A DNA stretch of 64,000 bases from Acholeplasmataceae bacterium (GCA_963675245.1 OY775910.1:1344001-1408000); one strand, 5' to 3'; counted from the first letter of the stretch, positions 1,718 through 63,416 are shown. Numbers and translations: made by a program. Notes: generated from the letters alone by a model not told the origin.

Positions 1718-1728
1718 CTTATAAAACT

Positions 1729-1802
1729 ATGTAACATTTTTGTTTTATTGAATGGCCTTATAAAAGGAGAAATTGCTTAAACATCTCACAAAGGTTATGT
1801 TT
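1729..1802 (+). repeat. Repeat family A, long copy 1
   Basis: Aligns by eye with 9357-9430 (ATGTAACATTTTT...GAAT.GCCTTA.AAA.G...TAAA...CAAAGGTTATGTTT). Confidence 0.8.
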
Positions 1803-2027
1803 AAGCAGACCTTTCCCCCGCCACCTGGAGGAAACCGGATTTGAATTAATATTAGTTTTTTATGATTTATAATTTATATAATATAGTTGATTTATTCTAT
1901 TAATGATGATAACTTCATAGCGTAAAATTTTCTTTGATGATGTTTAGTTTTATTTGACAAGAATTAGTATAAGTGATAGAATGCATACAATAGGATTTAA
2001 TAATAATCTATACAATAAGGGGGATTT

Positions 2028-3146
2028 ATGAAAAAAACAATTTTATTATTATCTTTTTTCTTTTTATGTTTAATGCTTACATAAAATGTATATGCTAGTG
2101 ATGTATATTTAGTTAACGATAATGGGATAAGTGTTTCTTATTTGGATTACGATATGTTCAAGTTATTCGGCTTATCAGATGATGAAATTAAAATTTTAGA
2201 CTTGGAAACATATAATAAATATGCCAATAGAAATATTATAGAGCAATCATATAATAGGATTAATATTGAAACAACTTATACTGTTGACAATGGTGAAATT
2301 GTCTCAAGGGTATACAAAAGAATGAATGAGATAGATTTTAAAGAAAAAGTACAAGTTCACAAAAATAAAATAAATAAAGATAAAAATTATGACAAAGATG
2401 ATATTATACTTTCGTCTGAGGTTAGTTCTTATTCGATTACTCCAATATTCGAAATTGAACCTCCTGGAGGCGGAGGCAGTAGTTCAAACATCGTGCGATC
2501 AATTTATGATTCAACTGATTATATGACATTTGATTCTTACAATATCTATTATTCAGACGCTGGAAGCAGTGGAGAAGTCTATATCAGAATTGAAATAGAT
2601 TGGGTTACAGAACCTAGTCAAAGATTTACTGATATATTAACAATTGGTTTTGAAGATGTCATGCTAAAAGAAGAATTTATTGGAGGACAATCTTATCCAG
2701 ATATTCATTCTTCGTTTACTTATGATCATGATTTGCATATAACTTATTTATATGGTCCACCTACAGTTACTTCATCATCATATAATATAACTTTTGATGG
2801 AAGTGATTATTCAGAATATATATATGATCATAATGATGAACATTATGTTGGTGTTGAATATGAATTACCAAAGGACCAATTTAGTGTTATTGGATATATA
2901 TATGATTCTAAATATTCAAATTTTCATATGCAACTGGAAATGAATTTCACAAGAACTAATTCTGATACAACTGGATTAACTTTTTCTGAATTTTATGCTC
3001 ATCAATCAGGTAGTGGATCAATAGATTGGGGGAAAATTTCCTTGACTTCAACTCCAGCGTTCATTAATTATGAAACTTCTCTTTTTGTAAATGATCCTAA
3101 TTTTGATGATGCAGTCGGTGGATTTGCAATTTTTCAGAATATTTGA
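2028..3146 (+). pseudogene. Secreted protein gene with in-frame TAA in its signal peptide
   Basis: AAGGGGG RBS and ATG at 2028 in frame with ORF 2142-3146; reads MKKTILLLSFFFLCLMLT*NVYA-SD with TAA at 2082-2084. Confidence 0.75.
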
Positions 3147-3152
3147 TAGCGG

Positions 3153-3353
3153 GTGCTAAAAATGAGTAAAAGAAATATAAAATTAATCTTTATAACTTCT
3201 TCCATGTTATCATTTATCGCTATGATAACATTAACAATAGTAGCGCTTATCGATTGGCAAGCAGTCGATATTGTTTCTGGTCTGTTTGTTCATGTAACTA
3301 TAGTAGCTATATTTATTGTAAGCACAATTGGTTATATAATTATTGATAGATGA
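3153..3353 (+). CDS. Small two-TM membrane protein
   Basis: Two hydrophobic segments; directly follows the secreted-protein gene; start may be ATG 3162. Confidence 0.65.
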   Translation: MLKMSKRNIKLIFITSSMLSFIAMITLTIVALIDWQAVDIVSGLFVHVTIVAIFIVSTIGYIIIDR

Positions 3354-3570
3354 TATAAATTGTGATTAATGCTATAGAATATTATTGTGAAGATTAAGTG
3401 AATTTCAATCATAGTGCATCAACTTCTAAGTTGGTGCATTTTTTTTGGATATTTTTTTGCATCATATAGGACATTGTAGTTAGTGTTTAGTAGAAAATTA
3501 TGTTTGATAGCAAATGATACCGATGAAAAAATACTAATAAAACAGAGGGGATTATTACATTTTTCCATGC

Positions 3571-3653
3571 AAAAAAAGCAACTCAGCCCGAAAAAAAGCA
3601 AAACTCCGTCGAACACGAACGATTTTAGAGTAAAACTCCGTAATGACAAGACA
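3571..3653 (+). repeat. Repeat family B copy 1 (transposon-end-like, ends in ACA)
   Basis: 3626-3653 identical over 28 nt to 6078-6105; internal AAAACTCCGT direct repeats. Confidence 0.8.
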
Positions 3654-3964
3654 CGATTATTATAGAAATCGCAAAAAAATTGCTTTTAACAGCTTAATAT
3701 AGCCATTAATAGCGTTTATATTTGCGATTTTTTTGTTAAATGATTATGAGTTTTTGATTATAATACATGGTTCCTTAAGAGATAATCTGCAAATAAAATA
3801 ATTCACTTTGTAAGTTACTACTTAAATTTAAATATTTAGAGATTGATATAGGATAACATAATTTAGAGTGAATTGACTTGGATTATGTATTATGCTATAA
3901 TCAACTCAATTGATAGAGAACTATTGAATCATATTCTCTAAATACGTTAAGGGGGAAACAAACA

Positions 3965-5185
3965 ATGAAATCCATAAAGCGCAGCATTTTGTTATTTGTT
4001 CTATTTTTTGGTCTTTTTGTTAGTGTATTTGCAATTAGTACTACGCCAGTTCAGGCAGAATCTAATGTGGTAAATTCGACAGAAGTAATTGTATCATATG
4101 AAGATGTATTTCAATCTTATTACGATACAGTAATCTTAGAGGCTAAATTAGCATTTAAAGATACAAATCTATCCTTTGAAGAGTTTTGTGATAAGTATTA
4201 TTATTTTGATATGGATATAAAAACATATACTGAAGCAGTTATAGATGCTTATGTATATGGTGAATATTCTGATATTCCAATTGCTAAATCATCTTCATCA
4301 TCATCTTCAGAAACAGCCGATTATATTTTAGATAATGGTATATTTGAACGTGAACCAATTTACAATTATTTTGATTACTCTGTAATTGAAATTGGGGATA
4401 TTATTTATGAAACGGATACTATATTTTTTGATTCTGGTCATATAGCGATGATAACAGATTATGCCTATGATAGTACATATGGATCCTACTATCGTACTGT
4501 AGAAGCAGTTGAACCAACTGTGTCAAATGGTTTTTTAGATGATACAAGAATGATTGATTATAGAGTTAAAATATTAAGAGTTGTTGGTGCAAGCACAGCA
4601 CAAATTAATGTAGTTAGATATTTTATGAATTATCAGATTGGTAAATCATATAGTTTAAATCCAATAAGGTTAAATACAAACATAAATTCTAGTGAGTGGT
4701 ATTGCTCTGAACTTGTATATGCAGCTTATAAATATGCTAATATTGATATTGGTGTTAAAAAGAACAGTAGTGGTAATGATGTGTATTTAGTATTAGGGTG
4801 TTTACCAGTTGATATTTACAACAGTTATAATACAAGTGAAGTTACAATACCAAGTTTTTTCCTTGAAATGGAGAATATGGGAAAATCAGGCAGTTATTGG
4901 TTAATCAAAATTACAAATTTATCAAGCTCGTATATTAGCTTTCAATATAACAGTAAAATGTGTTTTGCAAATGATGCCGAAAATTGGAGCGGACTAAACG
5001 ACTTAGTTACGAGATCTTTATATCCGAATACTTCTGTAACTGTAAGTATTCGCGAAAATTGGTTTGCTACAACAGTTGTAGCCGGTTGGCTTGATAGTGA
5101 AGACATGAGATTTATTACTTATGGCAACCAGCTTACCACTAGTGGAGGTATCGTTGTTACGAATGTTAAGAAAGATGAGAGTTAA
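3965..5185 (+). CDS. Secreted permuted papain-like NlpC/P60 protein (YycO/YiiX-like) with C-terminal beta-rich domain
   Basis: Signal peptide ending VQA; GDIIY..GHIAM precedes WYCSELVYAAY (His-before-Cys permuted order). Confidence 0.8.
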   Translation: MKSIKRSILLFVLFFGLFVSVFAISTTPVQAESNVVNSTEVIVSYEDVFQSYYDTVILEAKLAFKDTNLSFEEFCDKYYYFDMDIKTYTEAVIDAYVYGEYSDIPIAKSSSSSSSETADYILDNGIFEREPIYNYFDYSVIEIGDIIYETDTIFFDSGHIAMITDYAYDSTYGSYYRTVEAVEPTVSNGFLDDTRMIDYRVKILRVVGASTAQINVVRYFMNYQIGKSYSLNPIRLNTNINSSEWYCSELVYAAYKYANIDIGVKKNSSGNDVYLVLGCLPVDIYNSYNTSEVTIPSFFLEMENMGKSGSYWLIKITNLSSSYISFQYNSKMCFANDAENWSGLNDLVTRSLYPNTSVTVSIRENWFATTVVAGWLDSEDMRFITYGNQLTTSGGIVVTNVKKDES

Positions 5186-5197
5186 AATGTCTCTTCT

Positions 5198-5983
5198 ATG
5201 TTTCTGGTGGTCATTGTGAAAGCACATAAATATCTAATATTTTCATTAAGTAGTTTTTTAATTACATCAATCTATTTATCACTTATATATGTTTTGGGTA
5301 CATTAAATTCATATTATGGAACATCATTTCCATTGTGGATATTTTTCGGTTTATCAGCATTTGAGATTATTGTATATTTAGCAATCAACAATAAAAAATG
5401 GTTATTGTTGAGCATTATTACAATTTTAAAAGGAACTAGTTATACATTAGTTATGTCTGTGTTTTTGTTTAGAGGAAGCAGTGTACTAGGTACACCTGAA
5501 CTGATATTTTTAATCATTGGTATACTATTAGTGTTGATTACAGTTTATATAGAATATTTTGGTATATCTCGGAAACTAAATTCTCGTTCTAATGAAATTA
5601 TTAGATCAGGTATATTCAAACAGAAAAGATTGTTGATTTTACATATTGTTTATTTAATCATTATCATGCTATCTATTATCAATGATAGTTTTACTTTTGA
5701 AGGTTTTGTCTTATCAGGTGGAATTTTTATTGGAGCTTTATTTATCAGCATAACTTTGACTCAGTATATTATTTCAAAAAACAAAGGGAAAAAATCATCA
5801 TTAACTATATTGACTATACTAAAATTTTTAACAATATTATTTGTTATGATCGGATTAATGATGTATGTCAATATTTCATTTTATCATCCATATACTGCTA
5901 TAGTTAACTTGTTATTACATTTGGTAGCTTTAGTGAATTTTAGTTTCGAAATGTACCTATTAAATCATCAACCACTAACATAA
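5198..5983 (+). CDS. Polytopic membrane protein, unknown function
   Basis: About 8 hydrophobic segments; start may be GTG 5216. Confidence 0.75.
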   Translation: MFLVVIVKAHKYLIFSLSSFLITSIYLSLIYVLGTLNSYYGTSFPLWIFFGLSAFEIIVYLAINNKKWLLLSIITILKGTSYTLVMSVFLFRGSSVLGTPELIFLIIGILLVLITVYIEYFGISRKLNSRSNEIIRSGIFKQKRLLILHIVYLIIIMLSIINDSFTFEGFVLSGGIFIGALFISITLTQYIISKNKGKKSSLTILTILKFLTILFVMIGLMMYVNISFYHPYTAIVNLLLHLVALVNFSFEMYLLNHQPLT

Positions 5984-40273: not shown

Positions 40274-42262
40274 ATGACAGTATTAGGTTGGATTGTTATC
40301 AGTGTCTTTAGTGTTTTAGCGTTATTAATTACGACAAAAGCAATTGTGGAATTTATTTGGAATAGAAGATTAAATGCATTTAAAGTAAGTGAACATATAT
40401 CAAAAGTTAAAATGCCTGTTGAAAGATGGGTTAAGTACGGGTATAGTTTGGCATTAAGTGCCGCTGTTATCGTCGTATCTGTATTTTCTGGTATGTTCTC
40501 ACCTGTTGTACCACTTGGTGATAAAACGTTAGTTAACGCGAACAGAGTGGGCAATGAAGTCACTTTAAATCATTTAATCAATGATTATCTACGTGATTCA
40601 GGTAATTATAATTATTATCCTGAGTTTGGCGCAGAAGATTTAGCAGATGTTCCGACTGCAGAATCAAGAGATCACACAGATACCAATGTGCAAGTTGAAG
40701 GTGTGGATGAAGGTGATGTATTAAAGACGGATGGTTATCGTGTTTTTTATGCACCAAGATATTATAACGTGATTGAAGTGTTAGATATTGAAGATGATCA
40801 CACGATGACACATGTTGAATCAATGGTCATTGATGACTTTAGAGTGGATTCTCTTTATTTAACTGATGACTACTTGGTAGTCATTGGGTATCGATATGAA
40901 GAAATGATTTATCCGATGGATACACTTGATATGTATTGGGGATTTTACTTCTATGAGCAAACAGCATCAATTATCGTTTTCGATACGGATACACTTGAGG
41001 AAGTATATCGATTAGAAACAGATTTATCATTTATTGATCATCGTTTGATTGATAATACACTTTATATTGTCTCTACAAAATGGTTTTACATCGATCAAGA
41101 ACCAAGACCTGAATTCGATGAAACCGTTAATGGCGAAACATCAAAAAGCTATTTGAGTTATATGGATATGTATTATTTTGATGATGTACCAGCATCTTCA
41201 ATGACGGTGATTACATCTCTTGATTTAAATACGTTTACACAAAGTTCTCAAGGGTTTATTGGAGCAACCTCTCAAATTTACGTCACTGAAAATTCGATTT
41301 ATTCATATTACACGAATTATAATTATACCGAAACAGCTGAAGGATATGATTATAACATTGAAACAAATATTGTAAAATACCATATTAATCAAGAAAATCA
41401 AACGATCGATTACGTGGCATCCACTAGTATTGAAGGTATCGTTGAAGATCGTTACTGGTTAGACGAATCAGGAGATTATCTACGGGTTGTTACAAGTCGT
41501 TCTTGGTGGGGAAATGATTTGCAGAATAGTCTTTATATTTTAAAAGAAAACCCCGAAACAGACACGTTTGATTTAGTGTCACTCATCGATGAAAACATTG
41601 GTCATGAAAATGAACATGTTGAATCTGTTCGTTTCCATGGTGATTATGTCAATATCGTGACATTTGAAAGAACGGATCCTTTATACACGTTTGATTTATC
41701 AGATCCAGAAAATCCTGTCATGTTAGATAATCCTATTGAAGAAGCTGGTTATAGTGAATATCTTCATATCTGGGATCAATCAAATCATGTGTTAGGTTTA
41801 GGCTTTCTAGATGCTAATGAAGATGGTAGAATCGATGGTATGAAATTATCTGCATATGACACAAATACTGGCACAATTCTTGATACAGATCCATATCCAT
41901 ATGAAGATGGTACTGGATGGCGTTATAGTTACACAGAAGCGATGTATAATCCGAAGGCACTCATGGTTAGTGTAGATTTAGGTTTATTTGGATTCCCAAT
42001 GGTTTCATATCATTATGATAATGAAACATATAATTATACGTATCATACATCATTTGTAGTCTATCAAATTGACTTTAGTCAAAATAATGTTTTAGGTGAA
42101 CCGATTATTATTGAACATGAATCAACTGACTGGTATAACCAAGTTGATCGTGGTGTGTATATTGATGGGTATATCTATACATTCTCAGCACATGAAATCC
42201 TCAGTTACAATTTATCTACAGAATTGTCCTTTGAACAATTGTTTATTAATTATGAACAATAA
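40274..42262 (+). CDS. Membrane-anchored protein with extracellular beta-propeller domain
   Basis: Two N-terminal TMs; TNVQVEGVDEGDVLKTDG, VTFERTDPLY..DLSDP.NP, GYSEYLH. Confidence 0.88.
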   Translation: MTVLGWIVISVFSVLALLITTKAIVEFIWNRRLNAFKVSEHISKVKMPVERWVKYGYSLALSAAVIVVSVFSGMFSPVVPLGDKTLVNANRVGNEVTLNHLINDYLRDSGNYNYYPEFGAEDLADVPTAESRDHTDTNVQVEGVDEGDVLKTDGYRVFYAPRYYNVIEVLDIEDDHTMTHVESMVIDDFRVDSLYLTDDYLVVIGYRYEEMIYPMDTLDMYWGFYFYEQTASIIVFDTDTLEEVYRLETDLSFIDHRLIDNTLYIVSTKWFYIDQEPRPEFDETVNGETSKSYLSYMDMYYFDDVPASSMTVITSLDLNTFTQSSQGFIGATSQIYVTENSIYSYYTNYNYTETAEGYDYNIETNIVKYHINQENQTIDYVASTSIEGIVEDRYWLDESGDYLRVVTSRSWWGNDLQNSLYILKENPETDTFDLVSLIDENIGHENEHVESVRFHGDYVNIVTFERTDPLYTFDLSDPENPVMLDNPIEEAGYSEYLHIWDQSNHVLGLGFLDANEDGRIDGMKLSAYDTNTGTILDTDPYPYEDGTGWRYSYTEAMYNPKALMVSVDLGLFGFPMVSYHYDNETYNYTYHTSFVVYQIDFSQNNVLGEPIIIEHESTDWYNQVDRGVYIDGYIYTFSAHEILSYNLSTELSFEQLFINYEQ

Positions 42263-53777: not shown

Positions 53778-53806
53778 TTGACAATTTGTGAAAACGGTAT
53801 TAAAAT
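53778..53806 (+). promoter_or_regulatory. Sigma-A promoter of the riboswitch-controlled operon
   Basis: TTGACA-N17-TAAAAT directly upstream of the first aptamer. Confidence 0.8.
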
Positions 53807-53814
53807 CATGTTAC

Positions 53815-53923
53815 AAGTTGAAAAAGGCAAAGCTGAAGGAATTCAGTGACGCAAAGCTAAAGGGCCTAGATCAGGTAGCCAGTTACCATTTGTTAAGACA
53901 AAGTGGTGCTGGTATTTTTATTT
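53815..53923 (+). promoter_or_regulatory. GEMM-I (c-di-GMP-I) riboswitch 1 (G20) plus terminator
   Basis: GGCAAA-GCTGAA-GGAA-TTCAGT-GACGCAAAGC..GGGCCT..GGTAGCCAGTTACC; 3' strand is part of a terminator hairpin. Confidence 0.92.
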
Positions 53924-53935
53924 TCCAGAATCTGA

Positions 53936-54034
53936 TATGTTAAAAGCAAAGCTGAAGGAACTCAGTGACGCAAAGCTAAAGGGCCTAGAACAGGTAGCCA
54001 GTTGCCATCAAGATTGATGACTGCTGGCTTTTTC
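53936..54034 (+). promoter_or_regulatory. GEMM-I riboswitch 2 (A20 variant) plus terminator
   Basis: AGCAAA..GGAA..GACGCAAAGC..GGGCCT..GGTAGCCAGTTGCC; AGCCAG/CTGGCT hairpin plus T-run. Confidence 0.92.
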
Positions 54035-54069
54035 TGTAAAATAAAAAAATATAATTTATAGATTTTTAA

Positions 54070-54170
54070 AATGTAAAAAGCAAAGCTGTGGGGAACCCAG
54101 TGACGCAAAGCTATAGGGCCTAGTAAGGTAGCCAGTTGCCATCGACTATTTGATGACGGCTGGCTTTGTT
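54070..54170 (+). promoter_or_regulatory. GEMM-I riboswitch 3 (A20 variant) plus terminator
   Basis: Same consensus; AGCCAG/CTGGCT hairpin followed by TTGTT just before the RBS. Confidence 0.9.
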
Positions 54171-54188
54171 GTCGTAAGGAGTGATCCG

Positions 54189-54911
54189 ATGCATAGACTT
54201 TCAACCGTTACAGCGGCGAAAAAGATAAAAACTAGAAATCGCATATTTTCAATCGGTATCATTGTTAGTGGTATTTTATCAATCGTTCTAGGTGTTGTTA
54301 CATTCTATGGTCAACAAACAGGGAATTTCGTGATGAATGTCGATTATGATGCCTTCAATAGAGGAATAGTCATTGCTGATAATAGAACAATGGAAGACGC
54401 TGGGCCACAATTAATTAGTGAATCTATCACAGATGCAAAAGATGTGACGTATAGATGGTTAGATATTTCAAGTGCAAGTGAAACTGATGGTAATTTCTTT
54501 GATCCAGACCTTACATATATGGCGTATACATTCTATTTACAAAATGTGGGGTCAGAAGTTGTTGACATCACATATTCTATGAGAATTACTGATGTTTATA
54601 AAGGTTTAGATGAAGCAGTCAGAATTTTAATTATAGACGACGGCGTAGAAACACTTTATCAAAAAAGAGATGAAGCAGATGAATTTGGTGAACTTCCGAC
54701 TTATCCATTATCGATGCCTCCTGCATTAATGTTCCTAGATGATGATACAGTTGTCAGGAGGACAATATTAGGATTTGTACCAAATGAAATAAGAAAATTC
54801 ACAATAATGGTTTGGTTAGAAGGCGAAGATCCTGATACAAACGACGAAGTCTTAGGTGGACTCATTAAATTCAGATTGACATTCTCCATTGAGGAGGACG
54901 TAATCGCATGA
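54189..54911 (+). CDS. Single-TM exported protein related to the downstream fibre-like subunits
   Basis: AAGGAGTG RBS favours ATG 54189; N-terminal TM; YTFYL.N.G and C-terminal VWLEGEDPD motif. Confidence 0.8.
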   Translation: MHRLSTVTAAKKIKTRNRIFSIGIIVSGILSIVLGVVTFYGQQTGNFVMNVDYDAFNRGIVIADNRTMEDAGPQLISESITDAKDVTYRWLDISSASETDGNFFDPDLTYMAYTFYLQNVGSEVVDITYSMRITDVYKGLDEAVRILIIDDGVETLYQKRDEADEFGELPTYPLSMPPALMFLDDDTVVRRTILGFVPNEIRKFTIMVWLEGEDPDTNDEVLGGLIKFRLTFSIEEDVIA

Positions 54912-55885
54912 GACCAATTAACAGATTAAGATACTCCATATTACTTATGATTATCATGCTAATGGCACTAGGAACAGTGACATATGCATGGATAAGCTTA
55001 TCAACAATCAATAATATTGAAGGATTATCACTTAGTGCTACCTCTGGAGAAGAATTAGAAATTTCAATTGACGGTATTAATTATTACAACAATCTTAATA
55101 CTGATGAATTGTTGGATTTATTTGAAAATATTGTATTGACAGATGTCACAAGCAGAGATGGTATTAATTTTCAATCAGGTGGATTGAGAACTGGTCAAAA
55201 CATATATGCAAACGAAGATTATTTATCATTTGATTTGTACTTCAGAACAGTTTATGATGAACATCATGTCTATTTAATTAACAATGTAAGTGAACAAGTG
55301 AGTTATGATGTTTCAGCAAGAGGAACCTATGTAGTTTCAAATGGTATGGATTGGGTTAATCGTGTAGGATTCTTAAATGGTCCTGATCCAACAGATTATA
55401 TTGAGTCTGGTACACAAGCAAGATATTATGCAAGTGATACCATCAGAATGAGTTTCATTGAGCAACATGATGAAACGAATCCACTAGATACAAGAGATGT
55501 AAGTGAGTTAAGTCGTTGGATATTTGATCCATCGGGTGATGAAATGAGGGGTTATGGCAAGAGTTATGGTGCATATAGTTATTACATTCAAGTAACAAAT
55601 AACTATATCACTATTCCAAATGTCATACCAGAAGTAATATATGATTTAACAGAAACAGATCCAGAAAACCCATATATTACACATGATACTAATTCCTTAG
55701 TAACTATACTTCAAGCGTCAAATGAAACGAACGAAGAAGGTGAAGTTTACTACAAAGGTAAAATCACAGTTAACATTTGGGTTGAAGGATGGGATGCAGA
55801 CGCGTTCGATGCTGTAGATAAAGATCGTGTAAAAATCCAATTGCAATTCAAATCAACAAGATATATTCCAGATGATCAATCTTAA
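54908..55885 (+). CDS. SipW-type signal peptide protein (TasA/CalY-like candidate)
   Basis: Hydrophobic leader ending LGTVTYAWIS; C-terminal IWVEGWD. Confidence 0.8.
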   Translation: MRPINRLRYSILLMIIMLMALGTVTYAWISLSTINNIEGLSLSATSGEELEISIDGINYYNNLNTDELLDLFENIVLTDVTSRDGINFQSGGLRTGQNIYANEDYLSFDLYFRTVYDEHHVYLINNVSEQVSYDVSARGTYVVSNGMDWVNRVGFLNGPDPTDYIESGTQARYYASDTIRMSFIEQHDETNPLDTRDVSELSRWIFDPSGDEMRGYGKSYGAYSYYIQVTNNYITIPNVIPEVIYDLTETDPENPYITHDTNSLVTILQASNETNEEGEVYYKGKITVNIWVEGWDADAFDAVDKDRVKIQLQFKSTRYIPDDQS

Positions 55886-55947: not shown

Positions 55948-56916
55948 ATGAGTAAAATTACAAGAAAGCTCGTATTATCACTTTTAACGGTTGTGTTAAC
56001 AGTCGTCGCACTGGGAACATCAACATTTGCGTGGTTCACAGTTACAAACCAAGCGTCAGTTCAAGAATTCCAAGCGAATATCGCTGCTGATTCTGGGATT
56101 GAAATTGCATTACCACAATTTGGAGAAGCAGATCCTCTTAATTGGGGATGGAAATCGTATCTTGATGCAACAGATATCGCAACATATATTTCAGATTACA
56201 TCAATTCAAGTTTCACATTTGATCATTTGTCATCAGAAAATGGTGTTGCCTTTACAAACATCGATGGTAATAGTACAACAACTGGTTTTTTAAATATTCC
56301 TGTATACTTCAGATCAGACAATATTTCAGCTATCAATTTAAATGCATTAACTTTACGTGCAGATGATGTACCAGCTTGGCGTACAACAGTTGGATTTACG
56401 AATGAACATGGTACTGCTATATCAGCAAATGGCACATTTGCAGTCAATGCTGCAGATGCATTTAGAATTTCACTTACTGATGTTACTGGTTCGAATGGTA
56501 CTTCAATCTTTGAATTAGAAGGTACTGCTACTAATGTCGTATTAGGAGAAATTGCAGGATTAGACATTCTTGATGTAGCTAACACAAATCCAACAACATC
56601 AGAACCATATACTTATGGTGCGATTGAATATTACTATGCTGCAAATAGCGCATATCCATCTGATGGTGATGGCGATGGCAGTGTTTTGGTTAATATTCCA
56701 GATACAACATTAATTCCTGAATATGCATCACCAGCTACACCGCTTGTATCACCAATGACAGTGCTTGGTTTAATTGCAGATGCTGGTTCAGTTTATGGTA
56801 AAGCTAATTACGGTCTATTAAGAATTCGTGTTTGGTTTGAAGGTTGGGACCAAAATGCATACAATTCATTATTAGGTGAAACAATTTTCACATCATTCAG
56901 TTTTGAAGCTGCTTAA
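55948..56916 (+). CDS. SipW-type signal peptide protein, candidate major fibre subunit
   Basis: Leader ending LGTSTFAWFT; C-terminal VWFEGWD; AAGGAG RBS; flanked by hairpins. Confidence 0.82.
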   Translation: MSKITRKLVLSLLTVVLTVVALGTSTFAWFTVTNQASVQEFQANIAADSGIEIALPQFGEADPLNWGWKSYLDATDIATYISDYINSSFTFDHLSSENGVAFTNIDGNSTTTGFLNIPVYFRSDNISAINLNALTLRADDVPAWRTTVGFTNEHGTAISANGTFAVNAADAFRISLTDVTGSNGTSIFELEGTATNVVLGEIAGLDILDVANTNPTTSEPYTYGAIEYYYAANSAYPSDGDGDGSVLVNIPDTTLIPEYASPATPLVSPMTVLGLIADAGSVYGKANYGLLRIRVWFEGWDQNAYNSLLGETIFTSFSFEAA

Positions 56917-57047: not shown

Positions 57048-57746
57048 ATGAAACAAACAAAATGGAATGTTAAGCGAATTGTTAAAATTGGCTTAAATAC
57101 CATATTCTATGGTGTAATTGTATTTTTGATGTTGTTCTCAGTTGCTAATATGAGACTTAGAAGTGAAAACAATATCGCAAATATATTTGGTGTTGGCTTA
57201 CTATCTGTACAAACAGATTCCATGACAGGAACATTTGATCCTGGTGACATGCTATTTGTAAGTATGCTTGATGAATCAGACTTTGAAGATCTTGAAGTTG
57301 GGGATATAGTAACCTATTTTGATGTTCAATTAGGTGCTTTTAACACACACAGAATTGTTGAAATTAATCTTGATGAACAATTTTTAACAACAAAAGCTGA
57401 TTATGCAGGTGGAAATGGTTCCGTAGCTGTACCGGATCAACCAGTTGCCTTTGATCGTGTTATTGCAAGATATGATGGTCAAATGATTGCAGGATTGGGA
57501 TCAGGACTTGATTATATGCAAACATCAGTTGGATTCGCCTTATTTGTTATTCTTCCTGTATTGATCGTGTTGATCATCGAGGGTGTTATTTTAGCAAGAC
57601 ATATCATGGCTATGAACCGTGAAAAGTTGGAGCAAAAATATGCGGAAGAACGTTTACAGGTTGCGCAAAGTTTAGAATCAGAACGTGAAAAACTTCGTGC
57701 TGAAATATTGGCTGAAATGACGAGAGAAAAGGCATTACACGCATAA
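57048..57746 (+). CDS. Signal peptidase I, SipW/ER-type (Ser-His)
   Basis: VQTDSM..TFDPGD, GDIVTY, THRIV, TKAD; N- and C-terminal TMs. Confidence 0.9.
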   Translation: MKQTKWNVKRIVKIGLNTIFYGVIVFLMLFSVANMRLRSENNIANIFGVGLLSVQTDSMTGTFDPGDMLFVSMLDESDFEDLEVGDIVTYFDVQLGAFNTHRIVEINLDEQFLTTKADYAGGNGSVAVPDQPVAFDRVIARYDGQMIAGLGSGLDYMQTSVGFALFVILPVLIVLIIEGVILARHIMAMNREKLEQKYAEERLQVAQSLESEREKLRAEILAEMTREKALHA

Positions 57747-57782: not shown

Positions 57783-59321
57783 ATGGTAGAGTTCGCTCGT
57801 TACTATATTGACCTGTTACGAAACTTTTTCATTAATGTCGGTGAATTTTTTGGAGCTATATTTCAAGCATTTGCCGATTTCTTTGTTCGTAGTGTAGGTG
57901 AATATTTTAATAGTTTTGTTATAGCAACAGCTCAATTTGGACTACTTGACTGGGTAATGGCATTTGTCGTTATTGTGATCAATTTAGTCTTTTTGGTGTT
58001 CTTGGTTTTAAAACTCTATCAGTGGCTTTCTAAATACGCGCGCTTCGTCGGGCGCGAGATTGAAAAAGACGAACTACTTGAAGAAATTGCGTTCTTAAAC
58101 CAAAAGACAGTTGAACTAGTTGATGAACGTAATAAAATCTTAGCACTTAAGGTTTCAAACTTGGGGTTAAGTCCTGAAGAAGAAATCAAAGCAGAAGAAA
58201 AAATCTTGGAAGAAGAAATTAAAGATCAAGGTCCTTCTCGATTTGTTAAACTCATTGCAGTTGACAAAGAATACGAAAATCGCGTGACACAAATTCACAT
58301 GCGAGAAGAAGACATGTTGAATTTGAACGAAATCGTGACAAGATTCATTAACTTTTCAGCAAATAAGCTTGGTTTATTCTACAATAGAAAAATAATTTCT
58401 GCATTCTTTGCTGGTATGGCATCTTCTAAAACAATGATTTTAGAAGGGATATCGGGTACTGGTAAAACATCACTACCATATGCCATGGGTAAATTTTTTA
58501 ATAACGATGCACATATCATTGCCGTTCAACCTTCTTGGAGAGATAGAGCTGAAATGATGGGTTATCTAAATGAGTTTACGAAGCGATTCAATGAAACAGA
58601 ATTCTTAGAAGCGATATATGAAACGACTTATCACAACGATATCAACATCATCGTTCTAGATGAAATGAACTTAGCACGTGTTGAATATTATTTTGCAGAA
58701 TTCTTATCACTACTTGAAATGCCAGATGTCGATAAATGGCTTGTTGATATTGTTCCTGATGAGCAACCTTCAGATCCTGTACATTTACATCGAGGCAAAA
58801 TGCTACTTCCACAAAATGTGTGGTTTATTGGTACAGCCAATAAAGATGATTCAACATTTACAATTACGGATAAAGTATATGACCGTGCCACATCTATTGT
58901 TATCAACACAAAAGCAGATTTCATTGATGCACCTGAAACAGATAGTATCACACTAAGTCATGACTATTTACAAGAGTTATTTAGATCCGCAATGGATGAA
59001 CATCAACTTACCTTAAAGGCATTAAAAAATCTTGAAAAACTTGATAGCTATGTTACAGTAAATTTTAAAGTCACATTCGGTAATCGTATCATGAAACAAA
59101 TCAGAGCATTCGTTCCTGTATTTGTTGCATGTGGTGGCTCTGAAAATGATGCATTAGATTACATGGTTGCAAACAAAATATTTAGAAAATTTGAAGGATT
59201 AAATTTACCGTTCTTGCAAAAAGAAATCACTGAATTATCAACATTGCTTGATCGCTTATTTGGTAAAAACTCTTTCCCAGAGTGTCAAGCATATCTTGAT
59301 TCGATAAAGAAAACATTCTAA
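57783..59321 (+). CDS. McrB-like AAA+ NTPase with N-terminal membrane anchor and coiled coil
   Basis: Walker A GISGTGKT, Walker B IIVLDEMNLA, GTANKDD (NxxD), KVYDRA; hydrophobic segment near aa 50-80. Confidence 0.85.
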   Translation: MVEFARYYIDLLRNFFINVGEFFGAIFQAFADFFVRSVGEYFNSFVIATAQFGLLDWVMAFVVIVINLVFLVFLVLKLYQWLSKYARFVGREIEKDELLEEIAFLNQKTVELVDERNKILALKVSNLGLSPEEEIKAEEKILEEEIKDQGPSRFVKLIAVDKEYENRVTQIHMREEDMLNLNEIVTRFINFSANKLGLFYNRKIISAFFAGMASSKTMILEGISGTGKTSLPYAMGKFFNNDAHIIAVQPSWRDRAEMMGYLNEFTKRFNETEFLEAIYETTYHNDINIIVLDEMNLARVEYYFAEFLSLLEMPDVDKWLVDIVPDEQPSDPVHLHRGKMLLPQNVWFIGTANKDDSTFTITDKVYDRATSIVINTKADFIDAPETDSITLSHDYLQELFRSAMDEHQLTLKALKNLEKLDSYVTVNFKVTFGNRIMKQIRAFVPVFVACGGSENDALDYMVANKIFRKFEGLNLPFLQKEITELSTLLDRLFGKNSFPECQAYLDSIKKTF

Positions 59322-59338
59322 ATGACTAGGAGTAAGCA

Positions 59339-61192
59339 ATGAAACATCAACAAGAACTAAAAGAATTTCATCAAGCAATCACCGATGCTTACTATCAAAT
59401 CGAAATGGAACAGGTTTTTCCAAATCGTTTCTATGATGCATTTCTTGCTGGTGAGAATGAAATGTATCAAAAATCCATTACTGAGTTGAAGGCATTCCAT
59501 GTAGATTGGATACCTACGCTTGAGTCATATTTACCATCTTTGAATAAGATTATTATGAATCCTAAATCAGGATTAAGATATGAACAACCAGTTGTCGCAA
59601 TTGAAAAAGCAAAAAAAGTTAATGCGCAGTCAATCAGGCACTTATCCATGCATTCTCATCTTGTTAAGGAAGTTAGAGAAGACATGGTTATTCCTAAAAA
59701 AATTATGACGACTCAAGCTGAAATTGACTATGCCATTTATGAAAATCGTTTTATTAAAACATTGGTTGAACGCTTATTTGATTTTGTGTTTAGAAGATAC
59801 AATATTATTAAGGCGAATATTGATTCTTTCAATAAGAGACACTTTGATTTAAAAAGCAAATTTGATATGCAAGATACAGATATTGATTTGGATATTCATG
59901 TAACATTTACTGAACGAGCAGATGATGAAAATGCGATTGAAAAAAACAATGAAATGCTTAAACGTATCGAAGCTTTAATGAAACAAATCAATGGGTTTAT
60001 GTCTACAGCATTTTGGGCTGAAGTTAAAAATGCTAAAAATGTAACACCACCGATTATGCAAACATCTATTCTTTTAAAGAATATTGACTATAAAAATTGT
60101 TATACACTGTGGCTTTTTCTAGACCGATTTAGCAATCTTGATTTTGATAATGATGTTAAAGAAAAGAATCTAACATTTGATAATTACTATACAAAAAATG
60201 TATATCAAATTGCCTTACAAACTGTAGCGATGATATACGGTAATCAGTTAGCACTAGATGAACATTATCAGTATCTGAATGAAAAAGAGTACAAAAGAAG
60301 AAGTCCAAAAATTATCAATAAACGACTTGATGAATTACTGACACATGATCAAGTAATAGAAATGGAAGATTTTTCATTAAACGAGTATTTCTTAGAGCAA
60401 AGTAAAAAGCAATTTACTAAATTACTTGAAGAAAAACAAGAAGAATCATCTAATTATGATGTCGCCTTACGTCGAGCATTACGTGATACAATTCAAATTA
60501 CCAATTCATTATTTGAATCCTATTTTAATTTGAATGATCAACCCGAAGGCGAAGATTTCATGTTTAGGTCACTCGTCAAAGAGTCTACATACGATCAACT
60601 ACAAACCGCAAGACAGCGAACAAGAATCATGAAGATTATAAGAGAAACAAAAGAAGTAGACTATAACAATATGATGAGACTAGAAAAGCGATTATTAAAA
60701 GAAGTAGAGTATCTTAATAAACAGTATCTTGATGAAGAAAAATCAAATATTAAGATAGTCGCAAAACGAAAAGGTTTAGAAGAAAAATTAAAGATTGAAA
60801 GACGTAATGCAGCGAAAGATCAAGCAAGAGTAACTAGATATTTGAAATACGTTTCTGATCAACATAAAAAACTTGAAGAAAATCACAGAAAGACGACTGA
60901 AAAAATCAGAAAGACAAGAGAAAAGGTTAAACTTACAGAAAAACAAGTTATTGCAGCTGAAAAGAGAAAAGCAAAAGCGGCATATCAAGCAGAACTTAAG
61001 CGCATTAAGGAACAACATAAAGCTGATAAGAAGAGATTAGAGACTCAATTAGCAAAGCAGACACAAAGTGATAAAACAAGATTAGAACAACAATTGTCAA
61101 ATATCGAAAAGGCATCTAAAAAACGGATTGATAAAGAAATGAAAACAATTGAAAAACGATATCAAAAGAAATTAAATAAAGTCAAAACTTAG
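59339..61192 (+). CDS. DUF2357 (McrC-like N-terminal) protein with long C-terminal coiled coil
   Basis: DYAIYENRFIKTL and LLKNIDYKNCYTLW motifs; K/E/Q-rich C-terminal third; no PD-(D/E)XK motif seen. Confidence 0.72.
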   Translation: MKHQQELKEFHQAITDAYYQIEMEQVFPNRFYDAFLAGENEMYQKSITELKAFHVDWIPTLESYLPSLNKIIMNPKSGLRYEQPVVAIEKAKKVNAQSIRHLSMHSHLVKEVREDMVIPKKIMTTQAEIDYAIYENRFIKTLVERLFDFVFRRYNIIKANIDSFNKRHFDLKSKFDMQDTDIDLDIHVTFTERADDENAIEKNNEMLKRIEALMKQINGFMSTAFWAEVKNAKNVTPPIMQTSILLKNIDYKNCYTLWLFLDRFSNLDFDNDVKEKNLTFDNYYTKNVYQIALQTVAMIYGNQLALDEHYQYLNEKEYKRRSPKIINKRLDELLTHDQVIEMEDFSLNEYFLEQSKKQFTKLLEEKQEESSNYDVALRRALRDTIQITNSLFESYFNLNDQPEGEDFMFRSLVKESTYDQLQTARQRTRIMKIIRETKEVDYNNMMRLEKRLLKEVEYLNKQYLDEEKSNIKIVAKRKGLEEKLKIERRNAAKDQARVTRYLKYVSDQHKKLEENHRKTTEKIRKTREKVKLTEKQVIAAEKRKAKAAYQAELKRIKEQHKADKKRLETQLAKQTQSDKTRLEQQLSNIEKASKKRIDKEMKTIEKRYQKKLNKVKT

Positions 61193-61215: not shown

Positions 61216-61980
61216 ATGAATAAGTTAAAAATTAAAGATCATAGAAAACTGACAATCGTTTCATTACTATATGTATTATTTGCCTTCTTTATGTTAGTGG
61301 TTGTGACATATGCTTGGTTTGCAAATACAAATCATAATAATGCTAGTCTAATTCAAAATGTTGCAGCAGTTGAAGCAGAATATCAATATTTTGTTTATAA
61401 TGATACATCTCATACTGGTTCACAAGAATTAACATTAATAAATAATACTACGACAACAGGGGAAGACTTAGCTTATGAATTTGTACCAAATCCCACAGTC
61501 GCTAGCTTTATTGATGGTTATATCGCACCAGGCGAAAGATTTTCATTTGCGATTAAAATTACAAATGTTGGATCGGGAACTGGCTATTTAGAAATACAAT
61601 TTGGAAATGTCACATCAATCAATTATGATTTAGAGATTAATCGTATTCAAAATGCAATTTACTTTGAAGTTACTAAAATTGTAAGTTCAGATGGTGTCAC
61701 GGAAAGTGATGATATCAAGGACATTAGTCCTGCACAACATTTTAGTTCATATTTTAACGGTGATATATTTCAACGATATCAAATGTTGAGAAATATTCCA
61801 TTGGGTTATACATCCTCAGATGAAGTCACAATTATATTCTTTGATATTGTATTTGATCCAACGATTTATGGCGAAGATGAATTTGGTATACCTTATACCA
61901 ACTCAAATATTTTCATGGGTCAAACAATTACGGTAAATAATATATATATGTATATTACTTCCAACGAGGTGACACCATGA
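61216..61980 (+). CDS. SipW-type signal peptide protein (TasA/CalY-like candidate)
   Basis: Leader ending VVTYAWFA; IAPGERFSFAIKITNVGS resembles the TasA/CalY PGD...I.N.GS motif. Confidence 0.8.
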   Translation: MNKLKIKDHRKLTIVSLLYVLFAFFMLVVVTYAWFANTNHNNASLIQNVAAVEAEYQYFVYNDTSHTGSQELTLINNTTTTGEDLAYEFVPNPTVASFIDGYIAPGERFSFAIKITNVGSGTGYLEIQFGNVTSINYDLEINRIQNAIYFEVTKIVSSDGVTESDDIKDISPAQHFSSYFNGDIFQRYQMLRNIPLGYTSSDEVTIIFFDIVFDPTIYGEDEFGIPYTNSNIFMGQTITVNNIYMYITSNEVTP

Positions 61981-62684
61981 GAAATATAGCACCTAAATTG
62001 TTTACTTCTTTAGCCATTATCATTTTCATTTTTGCGATTGTTATTATGATTTCTGGCACTTATGCGATTAGAAGGAATGAACCAGTTTATATCTTTGGAT
62101 ATGCACTTGCTGTTGTTCCTACTGAATCAATGGTTGGTGAACATGAAGATTCACTTGATATGAATGATCTCGTTATTATTAGAAAAATTGATATTAGTGA
62201 CATCCATGTTGAAGAACATCCAGTGATTGTCTATCAAGGTACAGGAAATAATAATGCTGATATTCTCATTATTCACAGAGTGATTGGCGAATCAAATGAA
62301 GGTTTAATCACTAAAGGTGATAATGAAGATACGAACGATGTCGCTGATCAATTATTAGTTAATGGTGCTCAAGCATATATTACAGATGATAATATTCAAG
62401 GTATATATGTCGCGAAAATCACTTTTTTAAAACCAATAGCAAATATTATGACGAATTCAAGATCAATGATATTTGCAATAATTGCAGTTATTTTATCGGT
62501 CATTCTCATTTCTGAGTTAATTCATTTTGTTAAAACGCTAGAGGATAAGAAAAAAGAAGATATGGCAAAGCAACACGCATCTTATTTAGCTATAATGAAT
62601 GACGTCACAAGGAAGTCAATCAAAGAGGAAATTAAAAAAGAGTATTTGGCAAACCTAGAGCAATCTAGGGACGCAAAGCTATAG
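61977..62684 (+). CDS. Second SipW/ER-type signal peptidase I
   Basis: VVPTESM, DLVII, IIHRVI, ITKGDN...D. Confidence 0.9.
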   Translation: MRNIAPKLFTSLAIIIFIFAIVIMISGTYAIRRNEPVYIFGYALAVVPTESMVGEHEDSLDMNDLVIIRKIDISDIHVEEHPVIVYQGTGNNNADILIIHRVIGESNEGLITKGDNEDTNDVADQLLVNGAQAYITDDNIQGIYVAKITFLKPIANIMTNSRSMIFAIIAVILSVILISELIHFVKTLEDKKKEDMAKQHASYLAIMNDVTRKSIKEEIKKEYLANLEQSRDAKL

Positions 62685-62735
62685 GGCCTTTCTAAGGTAG
62701 CCAGTTGCACCATTATCGTTGGTAGCTGGCTTTTA
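62638..62735 (+). promoter_or_regulatory. GEMM-I riboswitch 4 (G20) plus terminator, overlapping the peptidase 3' end
   Basis: GGCAAA-CCTAGA-GCAA-TCTAGG-GACGCAAAGCTATAGGGCCT..AAGGTAGCCAGTTGC; AGCCAG/CTGGCT hairpin plus T-run. Confidence 0.92.
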
Positions 62736-62759: not shown

Positions 62760-63416
62760 ATGAGAAAATCAAGTCTAATTATCATGTTAATAGTAGCAAC
62801 TTTCACACTTATTGGTAGTGTGTCTTATGCTTGGTTCACGTACGTTGAGAAGAAAAGCTTAGCGACTTTTGAAGCAGGCGTTTTGGCTATTCAAACAAAG
62901 ATAAATGATGATGTTTTCTCAGTCACATATGAAATTTCCGATATTGCTTATATAGATTTTGATAAGGATGTCGTTAATGATAGTTCTAACACGTTTGATT
63001 ATATGGCATCGTCAAACGTTCTCGAAATTGCGCTTGACCCTCAATCACCACTTGCTGTTCACACAGTTACAATTAATGAACCTATTGGACAAGAAGGTTT
63101 GCTATTGTTATTAATTAATGAAGGACTAAATCTAGAATCTGGAGCTCAAATCACGTCTAATTACCACGATCTGATTGAGACGATTACAACCGGTTCTAGC
63201 ACACCAGAAGAAATGAGACTAGCAATCGATTTGTACAATCAAAGTGTTTTAGATGATGTTTATGAGACGATTATGACAGCTTCTGATACACTTTATTTGC
63301 AAGTGGTGGTATGGGGTGATTATGATGAATTATCTGATCAATCAAATTATTTAGATTTGACATTTTCACTAACTGTAACCATTGAGACAATTAATGCAAG
63401 AGGTGCAACACCATGA
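62760..63416 (+). CDS. SipW-type signal peptide protein
   Basis: Leader ending IGSVSYAWFT; C-terminal VVWGDYD. Confidence 0.8.
   Translation: MRKSSLIIMLIVATFTLIGSVSYAWFTYVEKKSLATFEAGVLAIQTKINDDVFSVTYEISDIAYIDFDKDVVNDSSNTFDYMASSNVLEIALDPQSPLAVHTVTINEPIGQEGLLLLLINEGLNLESGAQITSNYHDLIETITTGSSTPEEMRLAIDLYNQSVLDDVYETIMTASDTLYLQVVVWGDYDELSDQSNYLDLTFSLTVTIETINARGATP

Follow-up and report, generated by a model that had tools for sequence, protein, structure and literature searches.

A predicted membrane-anchored McrB-family protein and an McrC-like partner without a detectable nuclease in a SipW-linked operon of an Acholeplasmataceae bacterium

Here we describe two adjacent genes, encoding a 512-amino-acid (aa) McrB-like protein and a 617-aa McrC-like partner, within a 64,000-nucleotide (nt) stretch of the genome of an Acholeplasmataceae bacterium (GCA_963675245.1 OY775910.1:1344001-1408000; hereafter the window, G000:C1:1344001-1408000 in our numbering, from a genome of 1.63 Mb in a single contig). 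The pair sits in an operon with SipW-type signal peptidases, exported proteins and predicted cyclic di-GMP (c-di-GMP) riboswitches. We propose, with a probability of about 0.6, that the McrB-like ring and its McrC-like plug would form a membrane platform driven by guanosine triphosphate (GTP) for the biogenesis of fibres or adhesins, rather than a defence system. If this is true, an AAA+ motor known for cutting modified phage DNA would have been recruited to build or control surface fibres, a defence engine turned cellular machine, and a new fibre assembly route may exist in bacteria without a wall in which to anchor pili.

Results

The McrB-like protein

The first-pass annotation of the window had placed the pair at 57783-61192, and both open reading frames (ORFs; 57783-59321 and 59339-61192) were recovered as claimed, including the gaps of 36 nt after the preceding peptidase gene (57048-57746) and 23 nt before the following gene (61216); the two ORFs themselves are separated by 17 nt. 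The 512-aa protein contains a Walker A motif (GISGTGKT, residues 222-229), a Walker B motif (VLDEMN, 291-296), the stretch LDEMNLARVEYYFAEFLS (292-309) and an arginine finger (Y366-D-R368), each kept in 80-81 of 81 homologues, together with the signature GTAN353-K-D355-D356, in which the asparagine and D355 are each retained in 80 of the 81 homologues and D356 in all of them. GISGTGKT, LDEMNLARVEYYFAEFLS and YDR had been read as an McrB-clade signature, and all three are present, but the accompanying 'NxxD' is better taken as the NxD-plus-D/E variant of the NxD branch, the McrB branch described by Bell, Makarova, Wolf and Koonin (eLife 2024; PMC11090510), in which the NxD motif is usually followed by D or E.

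Sequence searches against PDB returned E. coli McrB chains (phmmer E 0.011; family profile E 0.0014), with an alignment that is weak but specific, spans Walker A to the arginine stretch and includes both Walker motifs and the N..D sensor; the other rows of the phmmer search were two LSm5 entries at E ~0.5. Pfam AAA_5 scored 20.2 bits, just under its 22-bit cut-off (32 bits for the class C paralogues introduced below), NCBIfam gave no match for either member of the pair, and PHROGs gave marginal ATPase matches only.

The hydrophobic or amphipathic N-terminal segment and coiled coil that had been noted earlier are supported by hydropathy and conservation. Kyte-Doolittle analysis gave one strong hydrophobic helix at approximately residues 52-80, after an amphipathic, Phe-rich N-tail, a window of transmembrane (TM) grade lies within the first 200 residues of all 81 homologues, and conserved hydrophobic residues at heptad spacing (98/105/112/119) indicate a short helix C-terminal to the TM segment. 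Since positive charges follow the TM helix, the AAA+ part should be cytoplasmic according to the positive-inside rule. No FtsB homology was detected at the N-terminus, for which Pfam gave only DUF4446 (E 0.02). Collectively, the motifs and hydropathy indicate that the 512-aa protein is a membrane-anchored nucleoside triphosphatase (NTPase) of the McrB family, NxD branch, with its catalytic motifs intact; by analogy with McrB it is probably a GTPase and a hexamer, and we refer to it below as the GTPase.

The McrC-like partner

The 617-aa protein matches DUF2357 (PF09823) at residues 4-151 with an E value of 4.9e-12 and 46 bits, against a cut-off of 23.3, and the domain is also recognised in partner homologues from class B loci (described below) and from small-genome lineages. 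In an AF2 (AlphaFold2) model built on 59 homologues, with a predicted local distance difference test (pLDDT) score of 78.8 and low confidence at residues 311-348, a long beta-hairpin at 164-193 is followed by helices after residue 280 and by an uninterrupted single helix at 417-616. The tail is strongly basic and K/R-rich, and the median net charge over the last 150 residues of 64 homologues is +19. The architecture proposed in the first-pass annotation, a DUF2357-like N-domain followed by a charged helix of approximately 200 aa, is consistent with both the Pfam match and the model.

The same annotation had seen no PD-(D/E)XK nuclease in this protein, and our searches agree. Pfam yielded no nuclease family at E 0.01 for the whole protein or at E 5 for residues 301-617, and a PDB profile search with the 59 homologues returned coiled-coil proteins only. 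The sole beta-strand beyond residue 264 in the model is 269-277, so that the alpha-beta-beta-beta-alpha-beta core of a PD-(D/E)xK nuclease cannot be placed. A wide VIA fold search with the 617-aa model, which is larger than the size at which VIA reliably finds single domains, was dominated by long-helix proteins, with no nuclease chain among the best 50 rows. The N-domain aligned weakly with the McrC proteins of E. coli and Thermococcus (Z 7.1 to both 6ut5_G, 135 residues aligned at a root-mean-square deviation (rmsd) of 6.8, and 6hz4_M, 140 aligned at 8.0), tied with many unrelated helical matches. Foldseek against PDB gave nothing at E <= 0.001, and no match was obtained from PDB by phmmer, from PHROGs or from PADLOC. 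On this evidence the 617-aa protein is predicted to be an McrC-type partner without a detectable nuclease.

The partner varies from 313 to 773 aa within the family. In 0.8-1.2-Mb genomes of other families the McrC-like proteins are only 373-380 aa long, and the long tail is therefore dispensable there. McrB motors translocate DNA, and the ancestry of the pair is that of a DNA translocase, which, together with the basic tail, could point to nucleic-acid handling at the membrane, such as export or import of DNA for a matrix or for uptake beside fibres. We consider this highly improbable, given that Pfam detected no DNA-binding domain in either protein, that a basic helix lying under the membrane would be equally able to bind acidic lipids, that Pfam, NCBIfam and ORF annotation revealed no competence or DNA-processing genes in the operon, and that a tail absent from the small-genome lineages is not essential to the core function.

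Synteny of the pair with SipW and surface proteins

Relatives of the GTPase number in the thousands, the best 120 being full-length, 62-100% identical and nearly all from Acholeplasma-like bacteria, with Acholeplasmataceae, Peloplasma and Acholeplasma as the source names of the close homologues. Within the family, the GTPase was found in 63 of 121 genomes and 13 of 20 genera; among the small-genome genera searched, it was found in none of 16 (g2), 15 (g15) and 10 (g12) genomes. Synteny was examined in 79 loci, namely the window's own region and 78 loci fetched from relatives, which represent most, not all, of the full-length matches among the 121 family genomes; together they hold 81 homologous ORFs of at least 430 aa. 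ORFs were called mechanically (at least 70 aa, longest non-overlapping), neighbours were labelled by phmmer or by family hidden Markov models (HMMs) built from the window's own proteins, and ORFs containing X were dropped, as happened at 10-nt N runs to the McrC-like ORF in L073 and the GTPase ORF in L074.

As to whether homologous pairs mostly lie away from sipW, a point raised by the first-pass annotation, a SipW-like gene was found within three genes of 63 of the 81 homologous ORFs, and a DUF2357 gene directly follows 64 of them. Fifty loci form class A1, with the full module in the order S-S-S-SipW-GTPase-McrC-like-(S)-SipW-S-S-giant, where S stands for an exported protein. Class A2 (13 loci) comprises a duplicated upstream module without the McrC-like gene and the second SipW; in those A2 genomes whose neighbouring module was also fetched, the full module lies next door. 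Homologues of the first exported protein of the operon, S253, occupy the same place in class A loci. In class B (12 loci), the neighbours of the pair are a cadherin-like giant protein and a TM protein whose GGDEF and EAL domains are both degenerate, and SipW is missing; in class C (3 loci as scored), two GTPase genes flank one McrC-like gene beside transglutaminase-like large proteins. One of the loci scored as class C, L070, was placed there only since its SipW is broken and reduced to a 119-aa fragment; in fact it belongs to A2. Similarly, L073 (scored A2) and L074 (the one unclassed locus) are A1 loci with a scaffold gap.

Tandem duplication of the module was seen in two genera (L036, L058, L062, L072, L077, L079, L081, L083, L085, L089, L091 and L095), where the upstream duplicate has its own GTPase, 61-72% identical, and is devoid of the McrC-like gene, the second SipW and the riboswitch.

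The arrangement extends beyond the family. Class-wide, a GTPase match was present in 154 of 399 scored genomes, and in 20 loci from other families, hand-picked for diversity and not a random sample, the GTPase gene is followed by the McrC-like gene in all 20 and has a SipW gene within three genes in 17, with two loci belonging to class B and one to class C; 10 of the 20 contain recognisable aptamers. Across species, each represented by one genome, a pattern scan returned at least 581 encoding stretches, the best 80 of which come from Acholeplasma laidlawii, A. oculi, A. granularum, Paracholeplasma vituli, Peloplasma, Mariniplasma, Izemoplasmatales, Anaeroplasmataceae and unclassified Bacilli, along with a few oddly labelled bins. 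Most carriers of the GTPase are wall-less or small-genome Bacilli.

Class B loci (L038, L040, L044, L049, L052, L053, L098, L101, L103, L109, L110, L111, L128 and L135) encode a cadherin-like protein of 2500-2650 aa, a TM protein of approximately 430 aa whose GGDEF and EAL domains both lack their signature motifs, the GTPase and its McrC-like partner, with neither SipW nor riboswitch. In the class C loci L041, L051 and L146, one of which lies in a 3.2-Mb genome of another family, one large protein combines a transglutaminase core with an antigen I/II C2-like domain. As the pair occurs in classes B and C without SipW, beside giant surface-type proteins, a mechanism specific to SipW would be too narrow: the association of the pair extends past sipW to surface proteins and c-di-GMP in a broader sense.

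These loci also raise the question of whether the pair is a motor at all. It could instead be a regulatory or anchoring module, either a GTP-gated switch or cytoplasmic scaffold that licenses SipW cleavage or holds and releases fibres and giant adhesins in the manner of LapD and LapA, or a basal fibre anchor for wall-less cells. In class B, where no peptidase is nearby, the pair stands with a cadherin-like giant and a TM protein degenerate in both GGDEF and EAL, a trio that recalls the LapA/LapD inside-out control of adhesin retention in Pseudomonas. A basic helix of 200 aa on a partner of such variable length (313-773 aa) would be more expected of a tether or scaffold than of an enzyme. Both SipW proteins have charged cytoplasmic tails, and the carriers are mostly wall-less or small-genome Bacilli. 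However, the NTPase motifs, including the arginine finger, are invariant, which indicates that hydrolysis matters, and binding of the pair to SipW or to the GGDEF/EAL proteins is conjecture; a complex prediction of full-length SipW1 with residues 1-160 of the GTPase scored 0.00, which is evidence for neither side. We regard such a module as unlikely in place of a motor, though it would be compatible with a motor role and the two are not mutually exclusive.

Predicted c-di-GMP riboswitches

No obvious terminators or mobility marks had been noted around the pair in the first-pass annotation; the operon, however, contains four c-di-GMP-I aptamers with terminator-like hairpins. The four RF01051 matches in the window score 52.7-60.9 bits against a gathering score of 35 and cover the full model. 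Three of them, at 53816-53890, 53935-54009 and 54069-54143 (60.9, 53.5 and 52.7 bits), stand in tandem in the 520-nt leader between the EAL genes and the first exported-protein gene, and the fourth (62638-62712, 57.6 bits) lies between SipW2 and the next gene. Hairpins after the three leader aptamers have predicted energies of -15.8, -16.5 and -19.8 kcal/mol (z -3.1 to -3.7), and the hairpin after the fourth is weaker (-17.1 kcal/mol, with a z of only -1.6). In each case the 5' arm of the terminator-like hairpin is the 3' strand of its own aptamer, and a U-run follows; since terminator and aptamer share this strand, ligand binding would prevent termination, and the riboswitches look like ON switches. 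Immediately 5' of the first aptamer is the site that best resembles a promoter in this region (53778-53806). Neither an aptamer nor a terminator-like hairpin was found between 54150 and 62600, so that, as far as can be judged from sequence, the pair is co-transcribed with its neighbours.

Four of the six aptamers in the whole genome belong to this operon. The other two (G000:C1:1051984-1057455 and 1095619-1099654) also lie 5' of proteins with AxW-type signals, one before a 1313-aa protein, the other before three AxW-signal proteins and then two signal-peptidase-like genes, without an McrB-like gene. Among class A1 loci, 45 of 50 contain aptamers, from 1 to 7 per locus, and four of the five loci without them are cut contigs; class B and C loci have none. 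An independent covariance-model search of the 78 fetched loci found 125 aptamers. The triple-tandem riboswitch Bc3-5 of Bacillus thuringiensis, as described in PMC4759541, likewise has three complete class I aptamers in one 5' leader, but its host and downstream operon differ, and in the present case a fourth aptamer lies inside the operon and the array recurs in 45 of 50 related loci. Our literature search found no report on c-di-GMP riboswitches in Acholeplasma and, by title or abstract, none on A. laidlawii GGDEF proteins that concerns a locus of this type.

SipW-type peptidases and exported proteins

SipW1 matches NCBIfam TIGR02228 at 52.4 bits (cut-off 51.85), and across 56 sequences its residues S58, M59, H101, R102 and D118 hardly vary. 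SipW2 falls under the cut-off of the same model (41.3 bits, E 1.4e-10), with ESM, HRV and KGDN motifs visible. Both peptidases look catalytic and of the SipW/archaeal type rather than SipA-like. In five of the six exported proteins, the hydrophobic N-terminus closes with T/S-Y/F-A|W/Y-F/I, which puts an aromatic residue at P2'; in TasA, a SipW substrate, an aromatic residue is likewise described at P2' of the cleavage site (PMC10269814).

The exported S proteins gave no Pfam match even at E 5 and no PDB profile match, and PHROGs gave none for the two subunits searched. An AF2 model of S*322 (pLDDT 80.7) is a beta-sandwich with a disordered stretch at residues 26-38, after the signal helix. Its best fold match in both searches was the TasA fibre 8aur_A (Foldseek E 0.011; VIA Z 4.9, rmsd 4.0, 138 aligned, a weak match), followed by the TasA-like archaeal filaments 7pnb and 7ueg (Z 4.3 and 4.2, also weak); Foldseek against PDB found nothing at E <= 0.001, and the nearest named ESM cluster was Peptidase_M73 (0.86, weak). 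The model thus suggests a TasA-like fold for S*322, suggestively only, and at least one of the exported proteins is probably a TasA-like donor-strand fibre subunit.

At two loci from 0.8-0.9-Mb genomes of other families (L137:7060-9231(+) and L145:6694-9198(+)), the SipW before the GTPase is a protein of 723-834 aa with a long cytoplasmic extension. The last ~250 aa of these proteins (723 and 834 aa) had appeared EAL-like by eye, a candidate that was rejected after Pfam detected no EAL at E 0.1, and the family HMMs found no DUF2357 part in them.

Co-occurrence and conservation

Subunit S*325 was found in 61 of the 121 family genomes and together with the GTPase in 58; these genomes are kin and not independent, and the pattern repeats over 20 genera. 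Three genomes have the subunit only (G011, where it lies at a contig end, G043, 83% complete, and G097, 92% complete), and five have the GTPase only (G036, G037, G041, G050 and G065), in each of which the copy is of class B, C or D or the match is weak. In alignments that draw on mostly the same loci, the GTPase has a mean column identity of 71%, far above SipW1 (39%), the McrC-like protein (35%) and S*322 (31%). The more distant the taxon, the lower the identity of its GTPase homologues to the one encoded in the window, in steps from 75-90% within the genus to 42-63% in other families, and the conservation of the GTPase looks vertical. The upstream flank of the operon consists of housekeeping genes (MATE pumps, FMN reductase, NUDIX and MGMT) without mobility genes, and GC content is even over the region; the locus does not look like a defence island.

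We weighed these observations against the possibility that the pair is a membrane-associated defence module, that is, an McrBC-derived sensor or abortive-infection system lodged in or guarding a fibre operon, for example where the fibres are phage receptors. The NxD branch contains the CoCoNuTs, predicted immunity systems (PMC11090510), and the PADLOC candidate model PDC-M26A matches the AAA+ core of the GTPase with an E value of 2.7e-41. However, this match covers only about 160 of 724 profile positions (272-432), the partner has no match, and PADLOC gave no full-length match to both components, either here or for class B, C and D paralogues. A second pair of more typical size (903 aa, and 521 aa with a zinc ribbon) is encoded elsewhere in the genome and may also be counted for a defensive role. 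Against it stand the absence of any nuclease or effector domain in Pfam, in the PDB profile search and in the AF2 model, the fixed order and content of the operon across families, the strong and vertical-looking conservation (71% column identity), the tie between the pair's presence or absence and that of the subunit gene, the predicted c-di-GMP riboswitch control, and the housekeeping flanks without mobility genes upstream. We therefore consider a defence module improbable.

The second pair (L055, G000:C1:1616500-1623500; genes 2939-5650(-) and 1381-2946(-)) lies among unrelated genes. Its 903-aa McrB-like paralogue has a hydrophobic N-terminus and an NRDE motif and is 35% identical over the AAA+ core, and its 521-aa partner gave sub-threshold zinc-ribbon matches. 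McrB-like copies of approximately 900 aa also occur in about ten other family genomes.

Discussion

Our analysis supports the central idea of the first-pass annotation, that an McrBC-type motor has been co-opted into a membrane-tethered SipW/fibre system, with respect to synteny, co-occurrence, riboswitch control, conservation, the lack of a nuclease and the housekeeping flanks, but the link to SipW, as class B demonstrates, had been drawn too narrowly. In the platform that we propose, the GTPase would be held under the membrane by its one N-terminal TM helix and a short coiled-coil stalk. By extrapolation from McrBC, the N-domain and hairpin of the partner would plug the McrB-like ring and trigger GTP hydrolysis, and the partner would bear its long basic helix in the place of the nuclease. 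The transcript of the pair would also encode two SipW-type peptidases, the six exported proteins and a giant, probably surface-exposed protein. Between its promoter and the genes, three tandem c-di-GMP-I riboswitches would act as a gate, such that high c-di-GMP may lead to read-through of the operon. Judging from this context, the tethered ring and plug would work on the cytoplasmic side of the membrane, as an engine or platform powered by GTP hydrolysis, and would drive or gate the steps in which signal-anchored subunits and large adhesins are processed in a SipW-dependent manner, polymerised or anchored. In the Clostridium perfringens model, TasA-like BsaA is signal-anchored at the membrane while the polymer grows (PMC11580942), and such signal-anchored polymerisation is the step at which the platform could act; we do not expect the pair to act on foreign DNA.

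A bolder form of this proposal, which we hold only tentatively, is that the pair may be the engine of a pathway, so far unrecognised, in which NTP hydrolysis powers the assembly of giant adhesins and TasA-like donor-strand fibres. This pathway would be switched on by c-di-GMP through tandem riboswitches, would be ancestral to Acholeplasma-, Izemoplasma- and Anaeroplasma-like bacteria and small-genome gut Bacilli, and would thus represent a new class of pilus biogenesis.

Several points weigh against a fibre-assembly platform. In twelve of the 79 loci (class B) and three more scored as class C, neither SipW nor subunits accompany the pair, and 13 A2 loci have no McrC-like gene beside the GTPase, although the full module lies next door where it was fetched. 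The TasA-like assignment is weak (Z 4.9; no Pfam match at E 5). The TasA fibres of Bacillus are not known to depend on an NTPase, and the need for a motor is therefore not obvious. The topology of the N-tail and the specificity for GTP are assumed. Finally, the other members of the NxD branch of McrB are predicted defence systems, as presented in PMC11090510, and PDC-M26A matches the AAA+ core.

Comparison with known systems places the pair within a clade that already has a name. CoCoPALM, a large clade of the NxD branch in which the GTPase is fused to an FtsB-like TM segment and coiled coil, is covered in PMC11090510 by one paragraph and two HHpred rows (FtsB, E 1.2; SipA 4N31_A, E 8e-8), with further analysis deferred to a later paper. 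All four features given for it there are found here, namely an NxD GTPase with TM segment and coiled coil, signal-peptidase neighbours, an McrC homologue that has a coiled coil as well, and frequent absence of the nuclease. By its sequence features the pair is accordingly a member of the CoCoPALM class and is not new as a kind. The peptidases are regarded there as SipA-like pilus assembly factors, whereas here the Ser and His catalytic residues are kept and the type is SipW/archaeal. Neither 'Acholeplasma' nor 'Mycoplasmatota' occurs in the main text of that paper, and its section 7, to which this search was limited, makes no mention of c-di-GMP control, TasA-like subunits or SipW-free contexts; five orthologue accessions are absent from its four supplementary files, in which only the representative RHC33375.1 is named. 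Among the literature matches listed, only the eLife paper and its preprint were relevant to CoCoPALM, the announced follow-up was not found, and none concerned a pairing of SipW with McrB.

What the present locus adds for this lineage is the catalytic appearance of the SipW-type peptidases, the probably TasA-like subunits, the arrays of predicted c-di-GMP riboswitches with adjacent EAL proteins, the SipW-free variants of the pair with giant adhesin-like and degenerate GGDEF/EAL proteins, and the occurrence of the locus in cultivable Acholeplasma. Orthologous loci in the cultivable hosts Acholeplasma laidlawii (at 61% identity), A. oculi, A. granularum and Paracholeplasma vituli make the named class directly testable, and the riboswitch arrays would offer a regulatory handle on the operon.

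With E. coli McrBC (6hz4, 6ut6 and 7vsr), the pair shares the AAA+ core motifs and a partner with a DUF2357/McrC N-domain, for which the structural match is weak. It differs in that the DNA-binding N-domain is replaced by a TM helix and coiled coil and NxxD by NxD+D, in that no PD-(D/E)xK could be found, and in its setting, a chromosomal fibre operon rather than a defence island. CoCoNuTs, as portrayed in PMC11090510, share the NxD branch, long coiled coils and McrC homologues that often have no active nuclease, but are invariably linked with nucleases, HEPN among them, and lack a membrane anchor; here there is a predicted TM anchor with secretory neighbours and no neighbouring nuclease. In tapA-sipW-tasA of B. 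subtilis and sipW-bsaA-bsaB-bsaC of C. perfringens (PMC11580942), a dedicated SipW-type peptidase likewise stands beside exported subunits, but these operons are without an NTPase, whereas the present one has two peptidases and six or more subunit-like genes, with no Pfam TasA/Peptidase_M73 match. Type IV pili and type II secretion offer an analogy, in that a hexameric NTPase in the cytoplasm serves a membrane platform and the subunits are signal-anchored and have a peptidase of their own; there is no homology, however, the NTPase being of McrB and not PilB/GspE type and the subunits beta-rich rather than type IV pilins.

Gene row and additional observations

The gene row around the pair is long and co-directional on the + strand, running from the EAL proteins and the leader through three exported proteins, SipW1, the pair, a further exported protein, SipW2 and two more exported proteins to a 2499-aa protein (Table 1). 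The last of these gave only a sub-threshold CBM_5_12 match in Pfam.

Table 1. Features of the operon and its surroundings, in window coordinates
Feature	Position	Strand	Remarks
Membrane GGDEF-EAL protein, 859 aa	49624..52203	+	Pfam EAL 3.7e-61, GGDEF 2.3e-14; EALIR and DDFG present, GG(D/E)EF motif absent
Membrane GGDEF-EAL protein, 476 aa	52200..53630	+	Pfam EAL 1.4e-56, GGDEF 2.4e-16; EALIR present, GG(D/E)EF motif absent
Sigma-70-like promoter match	53778..53806	+	TTGACA-17-TAAAAT, 11/12; consensus match only
Three tandem c-di-GMP-I riboswitches (predicted)	53816..54165	+	Rfam RF01051; each with hairpin and U-run 3'
Exported or anchored protein S253, first of the operon	54150..54911	+	N-terminal TM, without AxA|WF site; likely start ATG 54189
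Exported protein S*325	54908..55885	+	TYA|WI signal
Exported protein S*322, candidate TasA-like fibre subunit	55948..56916	+	TFA|WF signal; weak fold matches
SipW-type signal peptidase 1 (SipW1)	57048..57746	+	TIGR02228; C-terminal TM and charged cytoplasmic tail
Predicted membrane-anchored McrB-family (NxD branch) AAA+ GTPase homologue, 512 aa	57783..59321	+	Motifs, hydropathy, weak McrB similarity
McrC-like partner, 617 aa	59339..61192	+	DUF2357 N-domain, helical middle, 200-aa basic helix; no nuclease found
Exported protein S*254	61216..61980	+	TYA|WF signal
SipW-type signal peptidase 2 (SipW2)	61977..62684	+	TIGR02228 below cut-off; C-terminal TM and charged tail
Fourth c-di-GMP-I riboswitch (predicted)	62638..62731	+	RF01051; aptamer 62638-62712, hairpin and U-run after
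Exported protein S*218	62760..63416	+	SYA|WF signal
Exported protein, 225 aa	63413..64000	+	TYA|YF signal; extends 90 nt beyond window end
2499-aa protein, likely surface protein	just beyond window end		Hydrophobic N-terminus

Farther upstream, among the housekeeping genes, the window encodes a 662-aa protein (40274-42262) with a full-length Beta_propel domain (E 5.6e-92).

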